This document shows positions 3,748 to 31,044 of a stretch of DNA of 47,890 nt, one piece after another. The notes beneath the pieces were generated by a model, which saw only the letters and a program-made list of their open reading frames with translations, searched no databases and was not told the origin of the DNA. The position numbers and the translations under genes were made by a program. The stretch comes from an uncultured Candidatus Saccharibacteria bacterium (GTDB lineage Bacteria; Patescibacteriota; Minisyncoccia; Phycocordibacterales; 01-FULL-45-15b). The stretch covers positions 1 through 47,890 of the forward strand of contig CAYJVZ010000002.1 in NCBI GenBank assembly GCA_964373765.1, read 5' to 3'. How positions within the stretch are numbered: the first letter of the stretch is position 1; each line of letters starts with the position of its first letter.

Positions 3748-6700
3748 TCAGTTTTTGCGCTGGCCGTCAAAATCACGCATATCGGGAGTCAATTTAGCTA
3801 TCATTTTATTTTTAGGACTTTCAGGAAAACCGGTACCAGCCGGTATCAATCTGCCTATTATAACATTTTCTTTTAGACCGATTAATCTGTCCTCTATTCC
3901 TCTAACCGCCGCGTTAATTAGCACTCGAGTAGTATGTTGAAATGAGGCTGCTGAAAGGAAACTTCTTCTTGTCAGAGAAACTTCCGTAATGCCCATTACC
4001 ACCGCTTCGGCTTTAGCCTCCTCATTTTTGGATTTTGAATTGACTTCAATCAAGTAGGACTCGCTTACGGTATCGCCCAAAGAGAGATCTGTATCGCCTG
4101 AATCTTTGACCTTTCTTCTTGAAAACATCTGACGAATTATAACCTCAATATGTTTTCTTGAGACAGCCTCTCCTTGAAGTTCATACAACTTGCCAACTTC
4201 GCTGATTATGTAATTTTGAGTCTGTTCCTTGCCTCCATATTTAAATATTTCGTCAATATCGGCGCTTCCATCGGTTATAATGTCGCCTTTCTTTATTTTA
4301 TCGCCAGCTTTTATTAAGGCGGTTCTTTTATAATTAACAAGATATTCTATGGTGTCTTTCTTCTTTGCGGCTTTGGAAGTAAGCTCCGGCATTACCACAA
4401 TTACTTTCTCCCGTCCCATCTCTTTTATTTCAGAAACTACTCCGTCCACTTTGCTGACTATTGCCGGATTCTTTGGATGCCTCTTTTCAAAAACTTCCTC
4501 TACTCTTGGCAATCCTTGAGTAATATCTCCGCCGACACTGGCTGCGCCTCCGGAGTGAAAAGTCCTCATGGTTAGTTGAGTGCCGGGTTCGCCTATAGCT
4601 TGAGCGGCTACCGTGCCAACCGCTTCACCGATGGCCACAAGCTCATTTTTCCCAAGATCATAGCCGTAGCACATGACGCAAATGCCTTTAAGAGATTTGC
4701 ATGAAAGAGGAGATCTGACCAAAACGGATGAAATTCCTGCCTTCTCTATAGCTTCCGCGTCAAATTTGCTAATAAGATGTCCCCTCTCAAACTTCACTTG
4801 GCCGCCTGCTGATTTTAAATCAAGAGACAATACTCGGCCTCTAATATTTTTAGCTATTGATATGTCCATTCCAGAGGCGCTTTCTTTGGTTATAGATATT
4901 CCCTCTTTGGTTTCGCAATCCTCTTCAGTAATGATGGCATCTTGAGCCACATCAAACAGTCTTCTGGTTAAATATCCGGCTCTTGCCGTGTTTAAGGCCG
5001 TATCGGCCAGACCCTTTCTTGATCCATGAGTTGTAATAAAATACTCAATAGGATTTAATCCCAATTTATTTGAGCTAATAATCGGGAACTCAATAGTTTC
5101 TCCGGCTGTATTTTGGATAAGCCCTTTCATGCCGGCCATTTGGGTTATTTGGGCCAATGAACCTCTGGCTCCTGAAAATACCATATCAAAAACTGAACCG
5201 TTTTTATCCAACTCTTTTGGAATTGATTTTTCAACGGCATTTTTGACACCGTGCCAAATTTCTATACTTTTTCTGTATCGCTCGTCTTCAGAGAGAAAAC
5301 CCTGCTCAAACTGCTCGTGAATAAGCTTTATTTCTTTTTTTGCCGCCTCTACCAGACCGCCTTTTTCGCTAGGCTCCTTAATATCGTCTATGCCCCAAGT
5401 AATGCCGGAGTATGTGGCATATTTGAATCCAAAAGTTTTGATTTTATCCAAGATGCCTGAAACGTGATCGATTCCGTATTTTTCAATCAAATCATCCACA
5501 AGTGCGGACATATCCCTTCTTTGTATTTCTTTATTTATATAAGAATAGTCGGCCGGAAGAGCTCCGTTAAATAACAGCCGTCCAACCGTTGTGTCAAATA
5601 CTTTTCCATTATACTCGGCGTATTTTGCGGAATCCGTGCCAAGAACTTTAATTTTTGCCCTGAATGATACTGCCTGAAAATCATGAGCGGTTATAGCGGC
5701 GTTCGGGCTCTGGAAAAATTTACCCTGACCTGTTTCTCCATCGACAGATTTAGTCATCCAATAACATCCTAGAACTATATCCAGTTTCGCGGACACTATG
5801 GGCTCTCCATTTCCGGGCTTCAATATATTTTTATCCGACGCCATTATGTGTTCAGCCTCAAGTTGGGCTTCGTCTCCAAGCGGCACATGGACTGCCATTT
5901 GGTCACCGTCAAAATCCGCGTTAAAAGCCGTGCATACCAGAGGATGCACCTGAATGGCGTTTCCTTCGATAAGAACTGGCTTGAAAGCCTGAATACCGAG
6001 TCGGTGCAAGGTCGGCGCTCGATTTAGAAGAACGTGCTTATTGGCGATTATTTCCTCTAAAATAGCCCAAACCTCGGGTAGCTCCTCGTCAATCAATCGG
6101 CCGGCGCCTCTTATATTGAATGCGTATTCTCTCTTCAATATTTCTGATATGACGAAAGGCCTGAATAATTCAAGAGCCATGTGTTTTGGCAATCCGCATT
6201 GATTTAATTTCAAATCTGGACCGACAACAATTACGGATCTGCCTGAATAATCCACTCGCTTGCCAAGCAAATTTTGCCGGAACAGTCCTCGTTTTCCTTT
6301 AAGATTATCGGACAGAGACTTTAAGGCGCGCCTTTGACTTTGGCCAACCGCGCCTAAATTTGAATTGCCGTGCCTTATGGAATTATCTATAAGCGAATCC
6401 ACCGCTTCTTGCAGTATTCTTTTCTCGTTTCGTAAAATTACGTCCGGAGCGTTTATATCCTTGAGCTTCTTAAGCCTATTATTTCTGTTAATGACGCGCC
6501 TGTATAAATCATTAACATCCGATGTGGCGTATCTGCCGCCATCCAGTGGGACCATCGGCCGAAGAGCTGGCGGAATAACAGGCAGAACATTTAAAAACAT
6601 CCACTCCGGCCTCATGCCTGACGTGTACATGCTTTTTATGACACTTATTCTCCTGTAAAGTTTGTCTTTTTCTATAGTGCTTGCTTTCTCTACGCTTGCC

Positions 6701-7417: not shown

Positions 7418-10400
7418 TTAAGAAACTTCGCCGCCTAGTTCCGGAGATTTTATATCTACATCAAGCGCCAGACCTCTTAGGTTATTGACTAATACATTGA
7501 ACGAAGCCGGTATATTTGAGAGCTTAACTTTTTCGCCCTTGACAATGGCGTCGAAAGCCGCTGATCTGCCGACAATGTCGTCTGATTTTATGGTCAGCAT
7601 TTCTCTAAGAGTATAAGCCGCGCCATGACCCAAAAGCGCCCAGACTTCCATTTCACCGAAGCGCTGTCCGCCGCCTTGGGCTCTGCCTCCAAGCGGCTGT
7701 TGAGTGATAAGCGAATACGGGCCGATTGATCTCATGTGGACTTTATCTTCAACCATGTGATGAAGCTTCATGATATACATGTAGCCGACCGCAATGTCCT
7801 GATTGAAAGCTTCCCCCGTTCTGCCGTCAAATAATTTCATTTTACCATTTTCGGGATAACCAGCTTTTTTAAGCTCCTCTTTAATTTCGGCATCGGTGGC
7901 GCCGGCAAATGGAGGGGCAATGGCTTGATAGTTCAATGTATTTGCCGCCAAGCCAAGATGAAGCTCGAGTATTTGTCCAAGATTCATCCTAGACGGAACG
8001 CCAAGAGGAGTTAAGATAACATCAATAGGGGTGCCGTCTGCCATGTATGGCATTTCCTCAATTGGCAAAATTCTAGATATAACTCCCTTATTGCCGTGGC
8101 GCCCCGCTAGTTTATCGCCTATTGACACATTCCTGACTTGGGCAATTTCAATGTGTATTCTCTTTATAATTCCCGATTCAAGCTTGTCGCCTCTTTCCCT
8201 TGAAAAAGTTTTGACGCTTATCACTCTGCCTCTCTTTCCGCCCTCCAGTCGCTTTGAAGTATCCTTGACATCTCTTGCTTTTTCCCCAAAAAGCGAACGC
8301 AAAAGCCTCTCCTCTGGAGTAAGCTGGCTCTCCCCTTTCGGAGTAATTTTGCCGACCAAAATGTCGCCTGACCGAACTTCCGCTCCTATCATAACAACAC
8401 CGTCCTCATCCAGATTTTTAAGTTTAGCTTCTCCGACATTTGGTATGTCGTGAGTGGTAATTTCAGGACCTAATTTCGTATCTCTGACGTTGACAAAAAA
8501 TTCCTCCATGTGGATTGACGCAAATTTGCTTTCTCTAACAAGCCTCTCCGACAGGATTATTGCGTCTTCATAGTTCGATCCAGACCAAGACATAAAGGCC
8601 GTCAAAATATTCTGGCCTAGGGCCACTTGGCCATTGTCGGAAGATGAAGCATCAGCGATGACGGCCCCTTTCTTTATCTTATCCGCCACCGAAACACTCG
8701 GCCTTTGGTGAAGGGCCGTAAAACCATTGGTTCTAGAAAAGTTTATTAATTTATATATTTTCTCTTTTGATTTGGCGTTTTTTACGCGTATTTCGGAGGC
8801 TTCGGCCTTAGTCACAATTCCGTCTTCTTCAGCGATAACTAGCCTTCCGCTATTTCTAGCGGCCACTTCTTCAATGCCTGTAGCCACAAGAGGGGCCTCC
8901 GCTATAAGGCACGGCGTGGCTTGTTTCTGCATATTTGTTCCCATCAATGCTCTATTGGCGTCGTCGTGATTTAGGAAAGGTATGGTTGAAGTAGCCACTG
9001 AAAAAGCCTGATTACTGCTTACGTCAATGAAATCAACTTCATTTCTAGGCGACAAATTTGGCTTGCTCCTGTATCTTACTTGAACCTCATCAGAGATAAT
9101 TTTTCCATCGCTGTCTAATTCAGTGGCGCCGTGGGCAATTTTATAATCTTCCTCTTCAAGCGCGTTCAGATACAATATTTTTTTTGTAACTACGCCATTT
9201 TCCACTTTGGCGTATGGCGACTCAATTATGCCAAAATCATTAATTCTAGCGTAAGTGGACAATCTTAAAATAAGTCCGATATTCGGGCCCTCGGGAGTAT
9301 GGATTGGGCAAAGCCTTCCGTAGTGGGACGGGTGCACATCCCTAACCTCAAAACCAGCGCGCTCTCTCGTTAACCCGCCCGGGCCTAGGGCAGATAAAGT
9401 TCTTAAGTGCTCCAATTCATGCAATATATTTTCCTGTTGCATAAATTGCGAAAGCTGGTTTGTCGTATAAAATTCTTTAATCCTGGCTTGGAGAGGCTTG
9501 GGTGAGATAAAAGTAGCGGGCATGGTTACATCCGGATCAATTGTGGACATTCTGTCCTGGATATTTCTTTTTATTTGCGACATTCCGACTCTAATTTTTT
9601 GCTGTATCAATTCTCCAACATAGCGAACTCTTCTTGAGCCAAGATGGTCAATATCATCTGCGGAGGCGTTGGGATTTGAATTGAGAGCGGATATATGAGT
9701 AATTATCAAAACCAAATCTTCCAAATCAATAATCTTTTTTGAAATGTCTTTCTCGCTAACGCCTTTATTGAAGCGCCGATTGAACTTGAATCTGCCGACC
9801 TTCGACAAATCATACCTGTCTTGGCCAAACAGAGAACTGATAAATGATTTGGCATTGTCCACCGTTCCCAAGTCTCCGTCTCTAAGTCTTTTATGGATTT
9901 CAATAAAAGATTCGTCCACTGACTTGGCGGCGTCTTTCTCAAGTGAAGTTTTTATAATATTAAAAAGAGACTTATCGGCAGGCGGGAAAAGATTGAATAT
10001 GGCCTTATCGTCTTTAGCTCCCAATATTCTAAGCAAGGAAGTTGCAGGGAACTTTCTTTTTCTGTCAATCCTGACATAAATGGCGCCGTCAGCCTCGGAT
10101 TCTATTTCTATCCAGACGCCTCTTGAAGGAATAATTTTGGCCCCGAAGTATTTTTTGCCCTTAATTTCCTGCTCCGTAAAAAATATGCCAAATGATCTAG
10201 CTAACTGCGGAACGATAACGCGCTCAATACCGCTTATAATGAAAGTGCCATGACTTGTCATCATTGGGAAATCAGCCATAAACAATTCCTGCTTTTTTAC
10301 AGAGCCAGTCAGTATGTTTTTCAATTCCACCTTTACTTTTAGGGGAGCGTCGTATGTCAGCTTGTTTTCCTTGGCGTAGTGCTCGTCACATTTAATTTCT

Positions 10401-10600
10401 CCAAGTTTAAAATCAACAAATTTAAATTCGAATTTTTTTTCAGAATAATCTTTTATGGATGAGAACTCTGAAAAGACATCGTCGAAGCCTCGATTGATTA
10501 AATCATTAAATGAATTGACTTGGGATTCAACCAAATTCGGGACTTCGGTCAAAGGCTTTTTATATTTGGAGAAATATTTTTTTGTTTTTAAATTATTCAA
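7418..10600 (-). CDS. rpoB: DNA-directed RNA polymerase subunit beta
   Basis: GRHGNKGVIS, NMQKQA and GEMEVWAL motifs. 1060 aa. Confidence 0.97.
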   Translation of the reverse strand: MNNLKTKKYFSKYKKPLTEVPNLVESQVNSFNDLINRGFDDVFSEFSSIKDYSEKKFEFKFVDFKLGEIKCDEHYAKENKLTYDAPLKVKVELKNILTGSVKKQELFMADFPMMTSHGTFIISGIERVIVPQLARSFGIFFTEQEIKGKKYFGAKIIPSRGVWIEIESEADGAIYVRIDRKRKFPATSLLRILGAKDDKAIFNLFPPADKSLFNIIKTSLEKDAAKSVDESFIEIHKRLRDGDLGTVDNAKSFISSLFGQDRYDLSKVGRFKFNRRFNKGVSEKDISKKIIDLEDLVLIITHISALNSNPNASADDIDHLGSRRVRYVGELIQQKIRVGMSQIKRNIQDRMSTIDPDVTMPATFISPKPLQARIKEFYTTNQLSQFMQQENILHELEHLRTLSALGPGGLTRERAGFEVRDVHPSHYGRLCPIHTPEGPNIGLILRLSTYARINDFGIIESPYAKVENGVVTKKILYLNALEEEDYKIAHGATELDSDGKIISDEVQVRYRSKPNLSPRNEVDFIDVSSNQAFSVATSTIPFLNHDDANRALMGTNMQKQATPCLIAEAPLVATGIEEVAARNSGRLVIAEEDGIVTKAEASEIRVKNAKSKEKIYKLINFSRTNGFTALHQRPSVSVADKIKKGAVIADASSSDNGQVALGQNILTAFMSWSGSNYEDAIILSERLVRESKFASIHMEEFFVNVRDTKLGPEITTHDIPNVGEAKLKNLDEDGVVMIGAEVRSGDILVGKITPKGESQLTPEERLLRSLFGEKARDVKDTSKRLEGGKRGRVISVKTFSRERGDKLESGIIKRIHIEIAQVRNVSIGDKLAGRHGNKGVISRILPIEEMPYMADGTPIDVILTPLGVPSRMNLGQILELHLGLAANTLNYQAIAPPFAGATDAEIKEELKKAGYPENGKMKLFDGRTGEAFNQDIAVGYMYIMKLHHMVEDKVHMRSIGPYSLITQQPLGGRAQGGGQRFGEMEVWALLGHGAAYTLREMLTIKSDDIVGRSAAFDAIVKGEKVKLSNIPASFNVLVNNLRGLALDVDIKSPELGGEVS

Positions 10601-10750
10601 AATTTACTATATTTTAGACGCATTTAAAAAGCCACCAAGCTCCATCCGTAGCTAACAAAAAAAATCTAACAACGCCATTTAGTGGTTGTAGGATAAACAG
10701 ATTTAATAATCAATCATCTCCGCCTTAACTCAATCAGGCAATAATTTGTT

Positions 10751-10789
10751 AGCTTAAACTACTCTTTATATTTTGTCAAATGTGGATAA
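10751..10789 (-). promoter_or_regulatory. candidate sigma70 promoter for rpoBC with abutting perfect DnaA box
   Basis: Minus strand reads TTATCCACA-t-TTGACA-17nt-TAAGCT. The -35 is at 10774-10779, the -10 at 10751-10756, and the DnaA-box consensus TTATCCACA at 10781-10789. Confidence 0.4.
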
Positions 10790-11997: not shown

Positions 11998-12043
11998 CTG
12001 CGTCAACCTGCCACGTTGACGCAGTAGCACGTTGACGCAGTAG
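11998..12043. repeat. REP-like palindromic unit, dispersed copy of the R-repeat hairpin, with 16-nt tandem duplication
   Basis: ctgcgtcaacctgccacgttgacgca (11998-12023) is identical over 26 nt to 19441-19466 and 21641-21666. cacgttgacgcagtag is tandemly repeated at 12012-12027 and 12028-12043. Confidence 0.7.
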
Positions 12044-18110: not shown

Positions 18111-19019
18111 TTATTTCTTATTGCCGCCTCGCGAGACTAATGCTTGAACGGCTTTTGTGACAATCGGCAAAATATCGTTGTAAAAGTTAAGCTCAAGAAT
18201 ATCGCTTAACTTAAACCATCTGGCGTCATCCAATCCTCCCGATTTGGCCAATTTTATATCCTCAAAGCTTGTCTCCGCTAGATAATAACTGACCTGCTTT
18301 CTTATCTTACCTTTTTTGGGGTCGGAAGCAATGTATTCATTTTTGCCAAGTTCGTCTTTAAGTTCAATCTTCAAGCCGATTTCCTCGCCTATTACTCTTT
18401 TTGCGCCGATTATGTCGCTCTCGCCTTCGTTAATATGACCTTTAGAAAGAGTCCAGTGTCCAAAAACATCATGCACCAAAGCCAAATAAATCTCATTGTT
18501 TTTTCTAGCGAAAACCACCGCTCCAGCCAATTTTTCAATAGGCATTTTTTTTCTATCCAACATTTGTCCCTTTTCTCTGGGAGCGCTGTCTTTTCCCGGT
18601 TCCCCAAGCTCTTTGTAAACTGAACCGAGCACGCCATTTATAAATTTTGAACTGTTTTCCCCGCCGAATGTTTTAGCAAGTTCGATCGCCTCATTAATAG
18701 CAACTTTAGCCGGCACTTCATTTCGGTCGGCGTAAATAAGCTCGTATAGGCCGAGCCGCAATATATTCCTGTCAACAATCGATATCTTGTCTAATGGCCA
18801 ATCTGGAGCGGCCTTTTCAATTATCAAGTCAATTTCTTTTTTTTTGCCTAGAATGTTTTTTAAGAGCTGTTTTAGAAAAGTGTCATCGCCAATACCGGGA
18901 GCAAATTCCTTAGTGTTTCGTTTTAATATTTCATCAGTTTTGTTGGGATTGCAGCCGCCAAAATCCCACTCAAAAAGTGACTGAAGAACTGTAGCTCTTG
19001 CAAGGTGCCTATTTGCCAT
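18111..19019 (-). CDS. nusB: NusB antitermination domain fused to a C-terminal Nudix hydrolase domain
   Basis: Residues 1-140 are NusB-like (ARATVLQSLFEWDF..., DRNILRLGLYEL, AINEAIELAK.., FINGVLG). Residues 194-216, GHINEGESDIIGAKRVIGEEIGL, fit the Nudix box GX5EX7REUXEEXGU except E to V at one position. Confidence 0.8.
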   Translation of the reverse strand: MANRHLARATVLQSLFEWDFGGCNPNKTDEILKRNTKEFAPGIGDDTFLKQLLKNILGKKKEIDLIIEKAAPDWPLDKISIVDRNILRLGLYELIYADRNEVPAKVAINEAIELAKTFGGENSSKFINGVLGSVYKELGEPGKDSAPREKGQMLDRKKMPIEKLAGAVVFARKNNEIYLALVHDVFGHWTLSKGHINEGESDIIGAKRVIGEEIGLKIELKDELGKNEYIASDPKKGKIRKQVSYYLAETSFEDIKLAKSGGLDDARWFKLSDILELNFYNDILPIVTKAVQALVSRGGNKK

Positions 19020-19047
19020 TTTCTTATAACAATACTATACACCAATC

Positions 19048-19305
19048 TTATTTTGGTGTCGCCTCCTTTTTTTCCTCAATGCCTAATTGCTTGGCTTTTG
19101 CCTCGGCTCTTTTTTTATTCTTTTCAATTACCGAGACCATATCAATGACCGTTTTGCCTCGATACTTTCCGCATGTGCCACAGACATGGTGCCTCCTGTG
19201 CGCCGAGCCGCAATCTTTGCACAGCGACATTCGCACATCACTAAGCGCGTGGTGGCTTCGCCTGTTCGCTGTATGAGATTTTGTGTGACGCATTCTTACT
19301 ACCAT
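19048..19305 (-). CDS. rpmF: 50S ribosomal protein L32
   Basis: MVVRMRHTKSHTANRRSHHAL... with CKDC...CGTC zinc ribbon. Start at ATG 19303-19305. The ORF-track extension to 19425 runs into the non-coding repeat. Confidence 0.9.
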   Translation of the reverse strand: MVVRMRHTKSHTANRRSHHALSDVRMSLCKDCGSAHRRHHVCGTCGKYRGKTVIDMVSVIEKNKKRAEAKAKQLGIEEKKEATPK

Positions 19306-19311
19306 GGCTAA

Positions 19312-19340
19312 AATATACACTTCATGGCTAAATAATGCAA
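19312..19340 (-). promoter_or_regulatory. candidate rpmF promoter with leaderless geometry
   Basis: Minus strand reads TTGCAT (19335-19340)-17nt-TATATT (19312-19317)-ttagcc-ATG. Only 6 nt lie between the -10 and the start codon, and there is no SD. Confidence 0.45.
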
Positions 19341-19345
19341 ATATA

Positions 19346-19668
19346 TGCATCCGTCCAGCACATCTGAGACCTTTTTCTTGTAATTGTTTGCAAATATGCC
19401 TCAAAGGCGAAATTAAACCAAGCAATCAGTGAGAAACGCCCTGCGTCAACCTGCCACGTTGACGCACTTACGAGGAACGACTTGCGTCAACGTGGCAGGT
19501 TGACGCACTTACGTCTCGTCAAAGTTGAACCTCAACATTTGGTCAGACACATCGAACGCTCACGGTCGTGTTAGTTCGATGTGTGCGAAGTAACATTGTT
19601 CCAAATTTACAGACTGCCCCTTGTAAAAAAACAAAATAAAACCGCGACCATATTTCAGATCGCGGGAA
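19346..19668. repeat. long direct repeat R, copy 1 (non-coding, hairpin-dense)
   Basis: 19351-19630 reads identical to 21551-21830 (280 bp, offset 2,200). Homology continues at roughly 80% to about 19668/21868. No ORF is shared between copies. Confidence 0.9.
19631..19668 (-). terminator. Rho-independent terminator after ORF C (outer part of R copy 1)
   Basis: Minus strand: CCGCGA..TCGCGG stem followed by TTTTATTTTGTTTTTTT. Confidence 0.6.
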
Positions 19669-19782
19669 ATTTTTGTGTGTGTTCATGCCTTGCGGCAGTA
19701 CTTGCTTCTGTTGCCAAGCCTCACAATAGCTCCGTTTGCCCGCTTTCGCGTCAAACTGTTTGCGTCGGTCAGCGTCACCCCT

Positions 19783-20223
19783 TCAAGAATACTTCCGGAG
19801 AATGTCTTCTTGAATTGGATGGACTTTTTCAGCCCATTCGCCCTGGTACTTCGTCATCTCGCGCCATCCAGTCTCCGATAATATCGGCTGGCCAGTATCT
19901 TTCGCGATTTGCTTGGGTACCCGGACTCCAGTAAAAGCGTGCTGTACCACCCGCCACATCCGGTCAACTTCCTTTTGGGAGAGTCGACCGATTTTGCTCG
20001 GGGTGGACTGACTCGCCACATCGTTGGAAATATTACGAACATTCCAACATTGCGTGATCAGTTTTTTGCCTTTACCAGTTTGCGACCGGAACTCCGTCGT
20101 CAGACGCGGCTCGCTGTCCGCGACAATGGGCACGACGCAAGGTCCTTCGGGCCACATCATCGCATAGACGAACTGCACGCCACGGAATTCACGGATCTGA
20201 CCTCTGCGGAGGGAAGTTTTCAT
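19783..20223 (-). CDS. hypothetical protein (ORF C), N-terminal about 100 aa weakly PemK/MazF-like by eye
   Basis: 146-aa ORF in the GC-rich insert. RRGQI..., CVVPIVADSEP..., ...IGRLSQKEVDRMWRVVQHAFTG resemble the MazF strand order (RGD[IV], VxPxT, GxLsxeemxxixxal). Not verified by any search. Confidence 0.55.
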   Translation of the reverse strand: MKTSLRRGQIREFRGVQFVYAMMWPEGPCVVPIVADSEPRLTTEFRSQTGKGKKLITQCWNVRNISNDVASQSTPSKIGRLSQKEVDRMWRVVQHAFTGVRVPKQIAKDTGQPILSETGWREMTKYQGEWAEKVHPIQEDILRKYS

Positions 20224-20280
20224 AACAGTGATGCGGAACTGGTGCTCATCGGCGCACCTAAATAAAGCCGTTTGATTTAA

Positions 20281-20352
20281 AAGAACTGTAGACTCTATGG
20301 ATTCATAACTTCAGTTACGAACCCAATAAAGCGGAGAAATTTAATTTCTCCA
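20281..20352 (-). repeat. intra-island conserved non-coding module M2 (upstream of ORF C)
   Basis: Minus strand: hairpin GGAGAAAT-taa-ATTTCTCC, then GCTTTATTGGG, about 17 nt, then TGAATCCATAGAGTCTACAGTTCTTT. Paralogous to M1. Confidence 0.65.
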
Positions 20353-20433
20353 GCAGTTTCCACTTGCCAAGCGCCAAGGAGCTACCCCTCGGAATTACGT
20401 GCACATTTCGTAGTACAATCACGCAACCGCGAT

Positions 20434-20721
20434 TCAGTTTTGGTCGAAGAGCGGTTCCCACCACACCTGACAACCATAAACCACTTCGCCGTTGTCGAGA
20501 ACAATCTTTGGATTGCCATCGATCTTTTCCAACGTGCCGCCGATTTTCGCAACTTCCTCGTCGGTCGGGCGCGTTTCTGCCAGCTTATTGCTGACTAACG
20601 CACCTCGCGGATGATTGATGACGTAGACAGTCACATCCCCAACATATTGACCGAGGACGGTACCGTTTTCAGTTGCGACTTTCGCTCTGCACGGAATCGG
20701 AATTTGAGATTTAGTATTCAT
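20434..20721 (-). CDS. hypothetical protein (ORF B, 95 aa from ATG 20721)
   Basis: ORF track gives 20434..20763. The first 14 codons lie inside conserved module M1, so I prefer the ATG at 20719-20721. No recognisable family. Confidence 0.45.
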   Translation of the reverse strand: MNTKSQIPIPCRAKVATENGTVLGQYVGDVTVYVINHPRGALVSNKLAETRPTDEEVAKIGGTLEKIDGNPKIVLDNGEVVYGCQVWWEPLFDQN

Positions 20722-20724
20722 AAC

Positions 20725-20805
20725 AAAGAACTGAACTGTTGACTCTGTGGATTCACGACACAACGTTCATGTCCCCAATAAAATGGAGAAATTAGGTTCC
20801 TCCGC
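20725..20805 (-). repeat. intra-island conserved non-coding module M1 (upstream of ORF B)
   Basis: Minus strand: hairpin GGAGGAA-cctaa-TTTCTCC (one G-T pair), ATTTTATTGGGG, about 19 nt, TGAATCCACAGAGTCAACAGTTCAGTTCTTT. Confidence 0.65.
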
Positions 20806-20898
20806 TTCCCGCACTGCATGCGAGGCTCACGCTTCTTTTGAAGGTGACAACAATAGATGCTTCTGTGATGAAGGTGGCATCATCCTTCAGTACCGAGT

Positions 20899-21441
20899 TC
20901 ACTTTGGCACAAGCGCGATAGCATGCTTCCGGCCCGCAAAATTTTTCACCGGTTCAACCTTATGGTTGATGATGAAAAATTTCAGACCTCTCTCCACCAT
21001 GAAATCGACTACTGATTGACTAGGTACAGCAGCAATGAAATGCTCCCGACCACCAGTAAGAATAGTGCCGCCTAATCGGAAAGTGTTCTCATACGAGTAG
21101 ACTTTTCCATTTAGCTGACAGAACTCTTGACCAGGAATCCAATCGTATGTCTCTTTGAGGTGTAAAAGTCTGGCTGCAAGAACCTCCTGTCGAAGTGTTT
21201 CGGTTTGCTGGGTTGTTTTTTCCGTAAGAACGGAACGATGTAACCCTGCTCGACCGATTAGCGCGTATGCCTGGCTCTTTTTCAAACCAGTAAGCGCCAT
21301 CACTCCACAGACTCCATGCTTTCGGTATGTGCGTTCGACTGTGCCATCTTTGATCAAATGATCCCAAATGGCGGAAGATCGGTCACCGGCGTCAAAAGTG
21401 CTTCTTTTAACGACCAGCGTTCTTTCTCGTCTAAAGGGCAC
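20899..21441 (-). CDS. hypothetical HTH-containing protein (ORF A)
   Basis: Segment MALTGLKKSQAYALIGRAGL looks like an AlpA/excisionase/MerR-type HTH. The C-terminal about 100 aa are unknown. Start uncertain: GTG 21441 follows AAGGAAG, whereas the ORF-track GTG at 21471 sits inside a conserved hairpin. Confidence 0.5.
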   Translation of the reverse strand: MPFRRERTLVVKRSTFDAGDRSSAIWDHLIKDGTVERTYRKHGVCGVMALTGLKKSQAYALIGRAGLHRSVLTEKTTQQTETLRQEVLAARLLHLKETYDWIPGQEFCQLNGKVYSYENTFRLGGTILTGGREHFIAAVPSQSVVDFMVERGLKFFIINHKVEPVKNFAGRKHAIALVPK

Positions 21442-21506
21442 TAGCTTCCTTGTTCTGGTGTTCAATGGCACACCTATTTAAAGCCATTTTCAAAGTATCT
21501 GTGAAA

Positions 21507-21535
21507 ATCCTAGCATTTATATACTATTCTGTCAA
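21507..21535 (-). promoter_or_regulatory. candidate promoter of the A-B-C operon
   Basis: Minus strand: TTGACA (21530-21535)-17nt-TAGGAT (21507-21512). It lies 15 nt downstream of the R copy 2 boundary. Confidence 0.5.
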
Positions 21536-21545
21536 GCCCAGCGTA

Positions 21546-21868
21546 ATGCACCGTCCAGCACATCTGAGACCTTTTTCTTGTAATTGTTTGCAAATATGCC
21601 TCAAAGGCGAAATTAAACCAAGCAATCAGTGAGAAACGCCCTGCGTCAACCTGCCACGTTGACGCACTTACGAGGAACGACTTGCGTCAACGTGGCAGGT
21701 TGACGCACTTACGTCTCGTCAAAGTTGAACCTCAACATTTGGTCAGACACATCGAACGCTCACGGTCGTGTTAGTTCGATGTGTGCGAAGTAACATTGTT
21801 CCAAATTTACAGACTGCCCCTTGTAAAAAAGAAAAAAGAAAACCGCGATCATATTTCAGATCGCAGAG
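21546..21868. repeat. long direct repeat R, copy 2
   Basis: See copy 1. 21551-21830 is identical to 19351-19630. Confidence 0.9.
21831..21868 (-). terminator. Rho-independent terminator after ORF D (outer part of R copy 2)
   Basis: Minus strand: GCGATC..GATCGC stem followed by GGTTTTCTTTTTTCTTTTTT. The stem register is shifted relative to copy 1, but a hairpin is retained. Confidence 0.6.
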
Positions 21869-21885
21869 TATAACGTGTCACTTAC

Positions 21886-22185
21886 CTACTTTGGCATGCC
21901 GCACATTCTACACTTGCCAGAGTATAGCTCCACATAAGCAGCACCGTTTTGAAACGGAAGAGATTCTCTGGTTTTGGAATCCTTAGGAATCAAGACATTT
22001 AGACTTATCTCCACACCGCCCGAGTCGAGGAAGCCAGCACAAAACAATAGCATGGACCGGTGATTTTCAAATGGGTCGTACGCTTCAATAGCTTGATCAA
22101 CGTATCCATCCTTCCGCGGCACTAATTTGACCACCTTATCAGCAATGTTCACAACTAATCTAATCTCTCCTATTTTTGAAGTCAT
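21886..22185 (-). CDS. hypothetical protein (ORF D, 99 aa, C-terminal CRMC)
   Basis: ORF with about 45% GC, followed by a terminator and R copy 2. No recognisable family. Confidence 0.45.
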   Translation of the reverse strand: MTSKIGEIRLVVNIADKVVKLVPRKDGYVDQAIEAYDPFENHRSMLLFCAGFLDSGGVEISLNVLIPKDSKTRESLPFQNGAAYVELYSGKCRMCGMPK

Positions 22186-22241
22186 TTTTCTTTACTTTGG
22201 TTGATTGTTCGTACTTTCTGTTAAGGTACTTAGCCTTTATA

Positions 22242-22270
22242 TTATTATTATATAAATATTATTACGTCAA
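22242..22270 (-). promoter_or_regulatory. candidate promoter of ORF D
   Basis: Minus strand: TTGACG (22265-22270)-17nt-TAATAA (22242-22247), in a very AT-rich spacer after rnhB. Confidence 0.4.
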
Positions 22271-22327
22271 ACATTTCTGCGGTACATTCAACATTAAAGT
22301 GCAACACTTTAGGATGATCTGCAACTT

Positions 22328-22930
22328 CTATTTTGAAGTCAGGTGGTCGGTAAATGACTTTCTATGCAAAACGGATATTCCGTATTTTTTTATGGACTGA
22401 ATATGCATTTTCGTGCCATAGCCTTTATTATATTCCAAATGATATTTTGAGTGCTTCTTGCTGTAATTGACCATTACTCTATCTCGCTCAACTTTTGCCA
22501 CAACTGACGCCGCGGAGATAATTTTTATCTTTTGATCGCCTCTAATAATCGTTTTTTGCTCTAAAAATTTAGGTGGAGCTCTTAACGACCCGTCAAGAAG
22601 GATCTTTGAGGAAGTCGGGTCAGCCCTGATTGAGGTCAGAATCCTATCTATAAGCTTGAAAATAATTTTTTGAATTCCCTCTTTATCAATGGATTTGGGC
22701 TCTGCTTTTTTGATACATATATAAATTAGCTTATCTTTCTCCATATTCCGCAATACTTCATACCAATAGAGCCGCTTTGCCGCGCTTAGCAATTTCGAAT
22801 CCCTTATGCCGCTTAATTTTCTGTTAAGAAGGCGGGTATTTGTGCTGTCAGTATATACCGCGCCGACCATGACAGGCCCGGCTAAAGGACCTCTGCCAAC
22901 CTCATCTATTCCAACAATATATTTCGCCAT
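22328..22930 (-). CDS. rnhB: ribonuclease HII
   Basis: GIDEVGRGPLAGPV active-site motif. 200 aa. Confidence 0.9.
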   Translation of the reverse strand: MAKYIVGIDEVGRGPLAGPVMVGAVYTDSTNTRLLNRKLSGIRDSKLLSAAKRLYWYEVLRNMEKDKLIYICIKKAEPKSIDKEGIQKIIFKLIDRILTSIRADPTSSKILLDGSLRAPPKFLEQKTIIRGDQKIKIISAASVVAKVERDRVMVNYSKKHSKYHLEYNKGYGTKMHIQSIKKYGISVLHRKSFTDHLTSK

Positions 22931-29985: not shown

Positions 29986-31044
29986 ATGGAGGAAAATTCA
30001 ACACAAAATAAAGAGCAGGATAAAAAAGCAATAGTTAAGGATAACTTCATCCGAGCTTTGGCGGTAATAGGCCTTATTGTCGGATTGTATTTTGGCACGG
30101 TATTTATGATAAAGTATTCGCCAACAGTTTTTGAGAAGGTTATCGCGAACGTGGTTTCTATCACTTCAAAATTATTCAGTCGCGATAGGGATATTATTGA
30201 GGTCTACTCTGATAAATATAATGTTCGATCAGCTGAAGCTTTCACTATAAACTGGGAGAACAAAAAGAAAGGCGACGATTCCTATTTCATCAGTTATCCA
30301 TGCATTCAGGATTTGCATATTGAAATAATTACGATTGATTCAGATAACGTTGTCGTTTGCAATGAAAGAGAGGAGCTAAACATCTCAAGCAACCAGTTGA
30401 CGCTCGCCGCTTTTTCAAATAGCGAGTTTGACATTGATTTGCCAATAAGCATTTCATATGGCAAGGATGAGACTTCGGCGCTTAGAGGAGAAGTCTTGGT
30501 TACGGTCGGAAATAAAGTTTCTTCAGTTGATGACTCGCTTTCTGAATCTACCGCTGTCACTTCAAATAATCCTATCGCTGGAGCGACCACAGTTAACAGG
30601 CAACCCGGCAAGAAGACAGAGAATTTATTTGAAATAAAGGTTGATCCCATCAAGCCGCCAAATAAAGTAGGTCCTGTTGATCTAGCTCCAAGAATCATTG
30701 CGACTGGATTTATCTCTACCACAACCAATGAATTTACTTCATCTTCCAAAGTTAATCCTAAGGAGAGAATTGCGGTAAAGTTTGAAGTGGAGAATATCGG
30801 GGACGCAGTCTCCCCAGAATGGACCTTTAACGCTGTCTTGCCGACATTCCCTTCGCACATCTATCACAGCCCAAGTCAGATTGCTCTTGCTCCGGGTGAT
30901 AGGATTGAGTATGTAATCGGTTTTGACTCCGTGCTTTTGCAAAGCCAAGTTGAGGCTATAATTAACGTTGACCCGATATCAAGCGTCCGTGAGTCAAATG
31001 AAACTAATAACATCGTTAAAGCTAAAATAATTTTGGATCTTTAA
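29986..31044 (+). CDS. membrane-anchored protein with C-terminal CARDB-like domain
   Basis: N-terminal TM segment (ALAVIGLIVGLYFGTVFMI). C-terminal VKFEVENIGDAVSPEW...GDRIEYVIGFD...ESNETNN resembles CARDB adhesion-related domains. Confidence 0.6.
   Translation: MEENSTQNKEQDKKAIVKDNFIRALAVIGLIVGLYFGTVFMIKYSPTVFEKVIANVVSITSKLFSRDRDIIEVYSDKYNVRSAEAFTINWENKKKGDDSYFISYPCIQDLHIEIITIDSDNVVVCNEREELNISSNQLTLAAFSNSEFDIDLPISISYGKDETSALRGEVLVTVGNKVSSVDDSLSESTAVTSNNPIAGATTVNRQPGKKTENLFEIKVDPIKPPNKVGPVDLAPRIIATGFISTTTNEFTSSSKVNPKERIAVKFEVENIGDAVSPEWTFNAVLPTFPSHIYHSPSQIALAPGDRIEYVIGFDSVLLQSQVEAIINVDPISSVRESNETNNIVKAKIILDL

Follow-up and report, generated by a model that had tools for sequence, protein, structure and literature searches.

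A small orphan-gene unit with conserved structured RNA spacers in a Candidatus Saccharibacteria genome and its relation to hammerhead-bearing gene arrays

Introduction

About ten naturally occurring classes of self-cleaving ribozyme are known. Clustered copies of one of them, the hammerhead, flank single genes or short gene blocks in prophages, where polycistronic RNAs were cut in vitro into fragments of about 2 kb and the processing of transcripts was put forward as their role (Perreault et al. 2011, PMC3088659). Gene neighbourhoods associated with ribozymes have also been used to discover the twister, twister-sister, pistol and hatchet classes (PMC4604425, PMC6765202), and the reason for the association of ribozymes with particular genes is still open (PMC6765202). 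Here, we describe a unit of three small genes (A, B and C), separated by conserved structured RNA motifs, in a 47,890-nt stretch of DNA from an uncultured Candidatus Saccharibacteria bacterium (assembly GCA_964373765.1, contig CAYJVZ010000002.1, positions 1 to 47,890), the whole of which is called the window below. Read along the minus strand, the unit consists of a promoter, a short leader (m1), gene A, the motifs S2 and S1, gene B, the motif S3, a second copy of S1, a second m1, gene C and a terminator, and it lies between two copies of a long direct repeat (R).

The likeness of this unit to the prophage arrays is seen through its relatives. In three related loci (L003, L004 and L078), variable and mostly hypothetical genes on one strand are punctuated by type III hammerheads; B of the window is 76-81% identical to B of L003 and L004, A is 40% identical to its homologue in L078, and S2, S3 and the tail that follows S1 are shared. 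In contrast to the prophage arrays, the window contains no hammerhead and has S1, S2, S3 and m1 instead, the hosts are apparently of the Candidate Phyla Radiation (CPR) type, no prophage genes or integrase are found nearby, the genes number three, and long direct repeats bracket the unit. The logic that led to twister, pistol and hatchet, in which RNA motifs of unrelated structure are found at corresponding places beside genes of the same kinds, can be applied to S1, although S1, S2 and S3 match none of these classes. A further comparison is offered by the RNase III hairpins between the early genes of phage T7, where cleavage provides the upstream mRNA with a 3'-terminal hairpin that stabilises it. 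In both cases conserved hairpins with internal loops stand between the cistrons of one transcript, and the second hairpin of S1 (P2) is an extended one with an asymmetric internal loop. S1 differs, however, in its short helix (4 + 10 bp), its strongly conserved single-stranded bases and its possession of another hairpin, which are atypical of RNase III sites, and no site of that type is known to alternate with hammerheads.

The three-gene unit

The unique DNA between the two copies of R is 1,887 nt long (19664-21550), adjoins the ribosomal protein gene rpmF and carries its genes on the minus strand. Almost exactly this span (19670-21550) had been delimited by a first-pass annotation, made by a model from the letters and a list of open reading frames (ORFs), as a GC-rich three-gene operon inserted into a housekeeping cluster. 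We consider it somewhat probable that the segment is a horizontally acquired, self-contained transcription unit, an estimate that applies to the favoured reading as a whole, in which the unit was acquired, its RNA would be processed as in an array of single genes, and its entry may have taken place by recombination. With about the same modest confidence, the unit can be placed in a rare class of small-orphan-gene arrays that occur on CPR-like (Saccharibacteria- or Parcubacteria-type) contigs and in metagenome-assembled genomes (MAGs).

A foreign or mobile origin, as supposed in the first-pass annotation, is supported by the deviating composition of the segment, its own transcription signals, the long direct repeats and the rare, patchy gene families. 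The guanine-plus-cytosine (GC) content of the insert (19664-21550) is 0.484 versus 0.409 for the whole window, and 300-nt windows reach 0.44-0.54 at about 19200-22200 versus 0.33-0.42 in the flanks. The contrast is nevertheless smaller than had been stated, as the flanking housekeeping genes have values of 0.39-0.43 and not 0.37. GC at third codon positions is 0.44 in A, 0.54 in B and 0.59 in C, compared with 0.36-0.43 in host genes. The predicted promoter was recovered in a consensus scan as a sigma-70-type promoter at 21507-21535 (minus strand; TTGACA, 17 nt, TAGGAT), with the TG of an extended -10 element. It is in register with the promoter 5' of the A homologue in locus L002 (TTGACA-17-TATTAT) and with the array promoter of L078 (TTGACA-17-TATGAT), both read by eye with no computed alignment. 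The predicted terminator was likewise found, as an intrinsic terminator at 19642-19665 (minus strand; CCGCGAUC..GGUCGCGG followed by a U run), and has a diverged twin at 21843-21866, after the neighbouring ORF D. A boundary of the element at 21485, where locus L001 and the homology to L002 begin, was considered and dropped, because the promoters of the window and L002 align in register (by eye) upstream of it.

Gene A (20899-21441, minus strand) encodes 180 aa with an N-terminal helical part resembling a helix-turn-helix (HTH), a long helix and a C-terminal beta domain; its start is most likely GTG at 21441 (180 aa, as in P0001). Gene B (20434-20721, minus strand) encodes a small all-beta protein of 95 aa from a conserved orphan family with the motif NPKIVLDxGxVVYGCQVWWEP. 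Its start is most likely ATG at 20721 rather than TTG at 20763, because a protein initiated at TTG would read through a conserved RNA motif; the A-B spacer is therefore 177 nt long, not 135 nt as in the first-pass annotation. Gene C (19783-20223, minus strand) encodes an orphan protein of 146 aa with a single homologue (72% identity, in L005). All three are genuine protein genes under purifying selection: differences from homologues fall mostly at the third codon position, with counts at positions 1/2/3 of 48/31/93 for A versus L002, 32/23/69 for C versus L005 and 17/8/54 for B versus L003, and in comparisons of A, B and C with their nearest homologues synonymous changes account for about half or more of the altered codons. 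The codon-position pattern also rules out that the GC-rich block is a single large non-coding RNA.

Conserved RNA motifs in the spacers

The spacers had been described as structured on first inspection. In single-sequence folding, this holds for the B-C spacer, which exceeds its shuffles in stability (z -3.5), and the A-B spacer is only marginal (z -1.9); it is comparative evidence rather than single-sequence folding that counts here, and it reveals conserved RNA motifs in both spacers. S1 is the best supported of these candidate structured RNAs. One copy (20713-20817, minus strand) ends at the start codon of B, and the other is found at 20268-20366 (minus strand). Its layout comprises a first hairpin (P1), a junction (AUUUUAUUG), the P2 hairpin with an internal loop, ACAGAGU and a tail (CAGUUCUUU). 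In the consensus, the junction ACUUYAUUG is followed by an extended P2, whose YAUU/AYA internal loop is closed by ACUU/GAGU, and a CAGUUCUUUAAAU-like tail; the conserved bases sit in the junctions, ACUUYAUUG and AYAGAGU. A covariance model (R1) was built from 11 instances and used to search 494 kb, and its 19 matches were confined to the window (two), L003 (13, one of them weak and antisense), L004 and L005, with 18 of the 19 on the sense strand. The two copies in the window score 61.2 bits (E 5e-9, before B) and 72.9 bits (E 2.6e-11), and a variant of S1 with an inserted hairpin is present in L074. When the 19 sequences were aligned by fitting to R1, 95.6% of the cells were paired and double changes were seen in 17 of 19 pairs, while none of 500 shuffles was as good and slid controls reached about 40%. 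An independent analysis with MAFFT and RNAalifold gave compensatory changes in 12 of 19 pairs. The frequent G-U pairs of S1 fit an RNA of the sense strand only.

Two further motifs directly follow stop codons. S2 (20792-20899, minus strand; 92 bits with its model R2) lies directly 3' of the stop codon of A and consists of an H-type pseudoknot (GAAGG/CCUUC, with the loop pairing GAUGC/GCAUC), a hairpin and another hairpin with a UGCAG loop. Beyond the window, R2 matches only L002 and L003 (three sites in the latter); among the five sequences, 96% of the cells are paired and eight pairs show double changes, including three of the six pseudoknot pairs. S3 (20330-20436, minus strand; 109 bits with its model R3) lies directly 3' of the stop codon of B and has the core CGUAAUUC..GGGGUAGCUCC..GGCGCUUGG..GGAAAC, its last hairpin being P1 of the next S1. 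R3 matches only L003 (4266-4372) and L004 (1371-1482) beyond the window, the scores over all three loci being 103-118 bits, and compensatory changes occur in 8 of the 28 predicted pairs (three sequences). The m1 leader is found in the 5' untranslated regions of A (21455-21485, minus strand; GGCUUUAAAUAGGUGUGCCAUUGAACACCAG) and C (20239-20269, minus strand; GGCUUUAUUUAGGUGCGCCGAUGAGCACCAG), as well as before the A homologue of L002 and after the array promoter of L078; one stem pair covaries among the four sequences, being U-A in two and C-G in two.

S1, S2 and S3 have no match among 4227 Rfam models, even at E up to 10, and m1 likewise corresponds to no Rfam model. No Rfam match was found over the whole window at the gathering score, and at E<=10 the region 19000-22400 yielded only hairpin noise from the palindrome of R. 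With the models R1, R2 and R3, neither the 60-odd B loci of greater distance nor the spacers of L078-81 gave a match. Pattern scans of IMG/VR for S1, S3 and a hammerhead with tail gave one match, which fails the S1 model and is taken as chance.

Related arrays and hammerheads in the same position

For the comparison of gene neighbourhoods, 81 loci (L001-L081) were fetched, of which L001 (sample ERR3478686) is the same element. The closest relatives are L003 and L004 (B, 76-81% identical), L074 (B), L005 (C) and, for A, L002 and L078-L081 (40%), the last group including an NCBI MAG contig. In species-representative genomes, relatives of B come from four MAGs, two of them Candidatus Saccharibacteria and one each from Parcubacteria and Bacteriovoracaceae. 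The closest relatives of A, B and C lie in arrays of small orphan ORFs on one strand, with spacers of 70-370 nt and longer, and the hosts of these sister arrays are apparently CPR bacteria. Among the fetched loci, homologues of A, B and C occur together only in L001 (L002 and L005 being short contigs), and elsewhere (L002, L003, L004, L005, L074 and L078) each of them is found among different small orphan genes. The three genes thus behave as independent shuffled cassettes and not as a three-part machine.

Type III hammerheads (RF00008) were detected on the sense strand of the sister arrays, five in L003 and one in L004 (32-46 bits, E 2e-7 to 2.5e-3). In L078, a solid match (36 bits, E 2e-5) is joined by a marginal candidate at 23.5 bits (E 0.065), directly 5' of the A homologue. 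The array of L003 follows the order ORF, S2 or S3, hammerhead or S1, GUUCUUUAAAU tail and next ORF. The correspondence of positions is most direct next to S3: the window reads B, S3, S1 (20436-20268), L004 reads B, S3, hammerhead (1371-1554), and L003 reads another ORF, S3, hammerhead (4266-4420). Nucleotide homology between L004 and the window spans B and S3 (20723-20350) and stops at 20350, where S1 replaces the hammerhead. In the same way, S2 is followed by S1 in the window and at 3685 of L003, and by a hammerhead at 8452 and 10096 of L003. S1 therefore fills the hammerhead slot of the sister arrays. Moreover, GUUCUUUAAAU-like tails follow both S1 and the hammerhead. That RNA structures with no relation to each other are alike in size, position and downstream tail argues that they do the same job, which for a hammerhead is to cut the RNA. 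S1 itself was also considered as a type III hammerhead (core CUGAUGA ... GAAA, three stems) and rejected, as no RF00008 match was found in 19000-22400 at E<=10 and the junctions of S1 differ. Models of the twister, twister-sister, pistol, hatchet, hepatitis delta virus-like and hairpin ribozymes likewise had no match in this region of the window (E<=10) or in L001-L005 (E<=1). A literature search on hammerheads in CPR bacteria returned nothing relevant.

Proposed RNA processing and alternative explanations

In the mechanism that we propose, transcription from the promoter at 21535 would run across A, B and C as far as the terminator at 19665 and give a single RNA; both signals are present, and a single transcript is what they suggest. 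This RNA may then be cleaved at S1 or next to it, through its own activity or by a host RNase for which S1 is the recognition element. Single-gene mRNAs would be released in this way, with S2 or S3 serving as the structured 3' end of the upstream product and the GUUCUUU tail or m1 as the 5' leader of the downstream one. In several cases, the downstream ORF begins 10-17 nt after the tail and has no Shine-Dalgarno sequence. That S1, and possibly S2 or S3, represents a new class of self-cleaving ribozyme, which replaces the type III hammerhead in the small-gene arrays of CPR bacteria, is a doubtful proposition; if it were true, it would be a notable discovery, and a number of catalytic or processing RNAs not yet described would have their reservoir in these arrays. 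The latest bacterial ribozyme classes were found by the same positional logic, in which a conserved RNA is recognised where related loci hold a known ribozyme. The present case is compact, as S1 and the m1 leader occur twice each and the S2 pseudoknot and S3 once each within 1.3 kb, with hammerheads in the same slots of sister arrays, so that the association of ribozymes with small genes could be addressed in a defined three-gene unit on an apparently CPR-type chromosome.

Several observations weigh against this interpretation. Cleavage at S1, S2 or S3 is hypothetical, and P1 of S1 together with CUUUAUU scores as a weak intrinsic terminator, so S1 could terminate transcripts instead of cutting them. 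The window itself contains neither a hammerhead nor any other Rfam ribozyme, and every hammerhead match in the sister loci falls short of the gathering score that Rfam sets (48.5 bits). The majority of B homologues (L006-L068, L073, L075-77) lie outside such arrays and are not accompanied by S1, S2 or S3, and therefore the link between gene family and RNA motif is not obligatory; no Rfam ribozyme was found in the six other B loci that were scanned (L006-L008, L014, L022 and L034). Covariation is thin for the small families (five sequences of S2, three of S3 and four of m1), and the host taxon is one that we infer. As to the integrated state of the unit, the junction from R to A (21486-21550) is seen only in the assembly of the window, as L001 starts at 21485.

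The spacers might instead be elements of transcriptional or translational control that involve no cutting of RNA, the operon being regulated gene by gene. P1 of S1 and its U-rich 3' side would then act behind each gene as a leaky terminator or attenuator, translation of the next gene would be tuned by leaders (P2, m1 and the tail), and S2 and S3 would be 3' stabilisers or protein-binding sites. Both P1 hairpins do score as terminator-like (20352-20332 and 20803-20785), S1 ends 0-17 nt before start codons that often have no Shine-Dalgarno sequence, and m1 is located between the promoter and the first start codon. However, the P1 stems are AT-rich with an interrupted U-tract (ACUUUAUUG), and S1 is not followed by a conserved promoter. 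Furthermore, the supposed terminator has the conserved bases and the covarying P2 helix downstream of it, and the orthologous slot holds a hammerhead, which cuts RNA and has no terminator function. Because of the last two points, we rank this explanation below processing and regard it as unlikely. S1 was also tried as a sigma-70 promoter and rejected, the spacing from the -35-like to the -10-like element being 23-24 nt in two instances (by eye) and expected to vary further with the length of P2. Recombination at the level of DNA is a still weaker candidate, and we think it very improbable that the spacers are sites like the attC sites of integrons, folded as single-stranded DNA and used for the site-specific capture of single-gene cassettes. 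The resemblance to integron cassettes and to clusters of attC sites lacking integrases (CALINs) lies in the small, promoter-less orphan genes on one strand, the shared folded element at each boundary and the shuffled content that differs from array to array; in addition, homology between arrays breaks at motif borders, the match of L004 covering window positions 20723-20350 only. In contrast, no integron integrase or recombinase is present within about 10 kb or in the gene calls of L003, L004 and L078, and no R''/R' consensus (RYYYAAC / GTTRRRY) was seen by eye, no dedicated tool having been run. In attC sites it is the bottom strand that folds, whereas many G-U pairs of the helices found here exist on the sense strand only, and the hammerheads in the same boundary slot are RNA-level devices.

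The first-pass annotation had proposed a compact defence, addiction or mobile module, with C as weakly MazF-like and A as an HTH protein. Read as a toxin-antitoxin, addiction or anti-phage defence module, the unit would comprise a MazF-like toxin (C), an HTH regulator or antitoxin (A) and an accessory protein (B). As in type II toxin-antitoxin systems (MazEF/PemIK), a compact, foreign and self-promoted operon of small proteins stands in a housekeeping region; the N-terminus of A is helical and HTH-like, and that of C (RGQI...PCVVPIV) recalls MazF by eye. The resemblance of C to PemK/MazF did not survive database comparison: Pfam at E<=1, NCBIfam and PADLOC contained no match, phmmer searches of PDB sequences returned noise, and BLASTP against an E. 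coli MazF sequence gave E 19. The PADLOC-DB 2.0 defence profiles had no match at E<=1 to A, B, C or the neighbouring ORF D, and no antitoxin family was matched. Furthermore, unlike the genes of toxin-antitoxin pairs, A, B and C are set apart by conserved RNA elements of 177 nt and 210 nt with no translational coupling, a departure in spacing that had been noted correctly at the outset, and they show no conserved pairing, since the three homologues are never together elsewhere in the fetched loci, an outcome that the first-pass annotation had itself named as counting against a module. An RNA-processed mobile gene array is accordingly the more likely of the two, and a toxin-antitoxin or defence module is the least credible of the explanations considered.

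Direct repeats and topology

R is about 313 nt long, and its two copies lie 2200 nt apart. The right copy (21551-21864), between ORF D and the promoter of A, contains the terminator hairpin of D, an 18-bp hairpin and a 25-nt perfect inverted-repeat pair (TGCGTCAACCTGCCACGTTGACGCA); the left copy (19351-19663), between the end of the A-B-C operon and the promoter of rpmF, includes the operon terminator. The copies are 100% identical over 280 nt (19351-19630 = 21551-21830) and about 90% identical, with an indel, over the last 33 nt or so, which correspond to the terminator hairpin after C and its twin after D. Their identity ends at ...GCTGGACGG and ...GCUGGACGG, directly before two different promoters (of A and rpmF). 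On either strand, the fold of the left copy (19345-19670) is far better than that of its shuffles (z -6.6 and -7.9) because of the 25-nt perfect inverted-repeat pair, each member of which is palindromic (TGCGTCAAC-N7-GTTGACGCA). The 25-nt palindrome (TGCGTCAACCTGCCACGTTGACGCA) is also present at 11999-12023 in the khpA-rpsP spacer, together with an extra half-site (11999-12038), and the heptamer TTGACGC occurs 28 times in the window versus 4.9 expected, a count that none of 100 shuffles reached. That part of R, at least, therefore looks native to the genome, and TTGACGC may be a genome-wide operator or a sequence of the repetitive extragenic palindromic (REP)-like or uptake-like kind.

These features suggest that homologous recombination through the R sequence of about 313 nt brought the unit to this site or moves it in and out, a route that would need no integrase and would leave direct repeats. 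The event could have been a Campbell-type crossover between a chromosomal R and the R of a circle of roughly 2.2 kb, as 280 identical nucleotides, a diverged end and the lack of a recombinase are what such a crossover would leave. In agreement with the first-pass annotation, no integrase, transposase or other recombinase was found among the ORFs checked (10.8-33.2 kb), and no tRNA was found in the window. A prophage or site-specific island was rejected on these two grounds and because direct repeats of about 313 nt fit homologous and not site-specific recombination. If the recombination route is correct, it would illustrate how a gene island may enter a housekeeping locus through 313 nt of homology and with no recombinase. 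Retrozymes, eukaryotic elements that bear hammerheads and long direct terminal repeats, offer a partial parallel in their short unit, flanking direct repeats of about 300 nt and association with type III hammerheads; they differ in that R carries no hammerhead, the unit encodes proteins, reverse transcription has left no sign and the host is bacterial.

Contigs of the Logan collection from two independent samples end at exact branch points of the k=31 graph. L069 (ERR4904390) ends at 21801, as expected for the entry from D into R, L001 (ERR3478686) ends at 19601, the entry from C into R, and L070 (ERR3478686) and L071 (ERR4904390) start at 19630 and run from R into rpmF. ERR4904390 thus shows both the D-to-R entry and the passage from R to rpmF, and the C-to-R entry is seen only in ERR3478686. 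A different topology, compatible with the other readings, is conceivable, in which a free circle of about 2.2 kb (R plus A-B-C) shares R with the chromosome and was threaded into it by the assembler, or in which both forms coexist. According to the contig ends, R can be entered from D or C and left towards rpmF or A, and this graph fits an integrated unit and a D-R-rpmF chromosome with an R-A-B-C circle equally well; the R-to-A junction is in no independent contig, L070 runs from R into rpmF unbroken, the palindromes of R are of a kind that might in principle act as an origin, and an HTH-like domain is present in A. On the other side, the assembly of the window joins D-R-A and C-R-rpmF, the perfect identity over 280 nt with a diverged 33-nt end is the product expected of a Campbell-type crossover, and A has no similarity to any Rep family or to the plasmid or phage proteins of the phage collection. 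We hold the free circle, alone or next to an integrated form, to be a tentative possibility, and the assemblies suit either arrangement.

Two local details of R were also recorded. In L071 (113-139, sample ERR4904390; equivalent to about 19519 of the window), a 27-nt tandem duplication (CGAGACGTAAGTGCGTCAACCTGCCAC) is present inside R and represents either strain variation or an assembly slip at the palindrome. The longest ORF of rpmF (125 aa) and the Logan gene call (100 aa) reach upstream into R (window 19294-19425, minus strand); the Pfam match to L32 starts at residue 46, and therefore the true start of rpmF is probably ATG at 19293.

Protein families

The families of A, B and C are rare and patchily distributed. 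For A, a word-indexed search gave two relatives and a set of 1.84 billion proteins contained 18 representatives, B has 55 homologues and C has one relative. None of A, B, C and D has a meaningful match in Pfam, NCBIfam, PADLOC or PHROGs, in line with the initial impression that the ORFs belong to no family that could be named; all 18 members of the A family are without a Pfam or PHROG match, and the members of the B family likewise gave nothing. Searches of the INPHARED phages with A and B (tblastn) found no match. AlphaFold2 models of A and B were predicted with high confidence (predicted local distance difference test scores of 91 and 90, respectively). The model of A has no structural match in the PDB or BFVD, and the sole resemblance of B in the PDB is a weak one to hybrid (interdigitated) Tudor domains (E 0.013, template modelling score 0.35). 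The suggestion that A contains an AlpA/excisionase-like HTH (PF05930) was not upheld: the match scored 12.1 bits versus a Pfam cut-off of 21 (E 0.19, 16 residues), and the model has N-terminal helices with no structural match. For C, a PHROG family annotated as "HNH" (E 0.0014) was rejected because C has no His/Cys motif of that kind.

ORF D (21886-22185, minus strand) encodes an orphan protein of 99 aa with a C-terminal CxxC and has a slightly raised GC content (0.44); it probably does not belong to the inserted unit. Its position, directly upstream of rpmF, is what we take to be the usual place of yceD/DUF177, and no profile supports this identity.

Other features of the related loci and the neighbourhood

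Some homologues of B stand in different surroundings. L073 carries one in a densely packed phage-like genome, and in L075-L077 (about 1070-2930) B-family genes lie immediately 5' of genes for Prok-JAB, ThiF (E1-like) and cpYpsA; for some members, this hints at a context of ubiquitin-like conjugation. The arrays themselves adjoin genes for TrmB-family regulators (L003 and L078) and HU (L004 and L078), with CsrA also near in L004 (L003 1804-3484; L004 2511-3349; L078 4196-7215), and the recurrence of TrmB and HU suggests a preferred chromosomal neighbourhood.

Repeats precede two of the promoters: a 600-nt non-coding stretch with iteron-like repeats (TGGGACAC / AUGAGACA) lies 5' of the promoter of the A homologue in L002 (1-590), and the region ahead of the array promoter in L003 (2590-3484) is rich in TTGTCA-type repeats. 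A recurrent leader, AACAAUCAAC(A)AAAGGA, is found before several array ORFs (L003 7500-7554, 7936-8021 and 11438-11555; L005 ~1360-1396) and may be a shared translation-initiation region, distinct from the starts after S1 that have no Shine-Dalgarno sequence. Also in L003, a called ORF of 195 aa (10178-10765) overlaps a hammerhead (10247-10300) and the end of S2, and its start has therefore probably been over-called.

In the 10.8-33.2 kb region of the window, the ORFs on one side of the unit are trmD, khpA, rpsP, RNase R, SMC, rnc, NusB-NUDIX and rpmF, and those on the other side are the orphan D, rnhB, dnaE, a DUF11 protein, a sortase, a CARDB-domain protein (29986-31044) and gyrB; apart from D, these are genes of housekeeping functions or surface proteins. 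NusB is fused to a NUDIX hydrolase domain in one ORF of 302 aa (18111-19019, minus strand), and an identical protein, for which Pfam reports NusB and NUDIX, is encoded in both L070 and L071.

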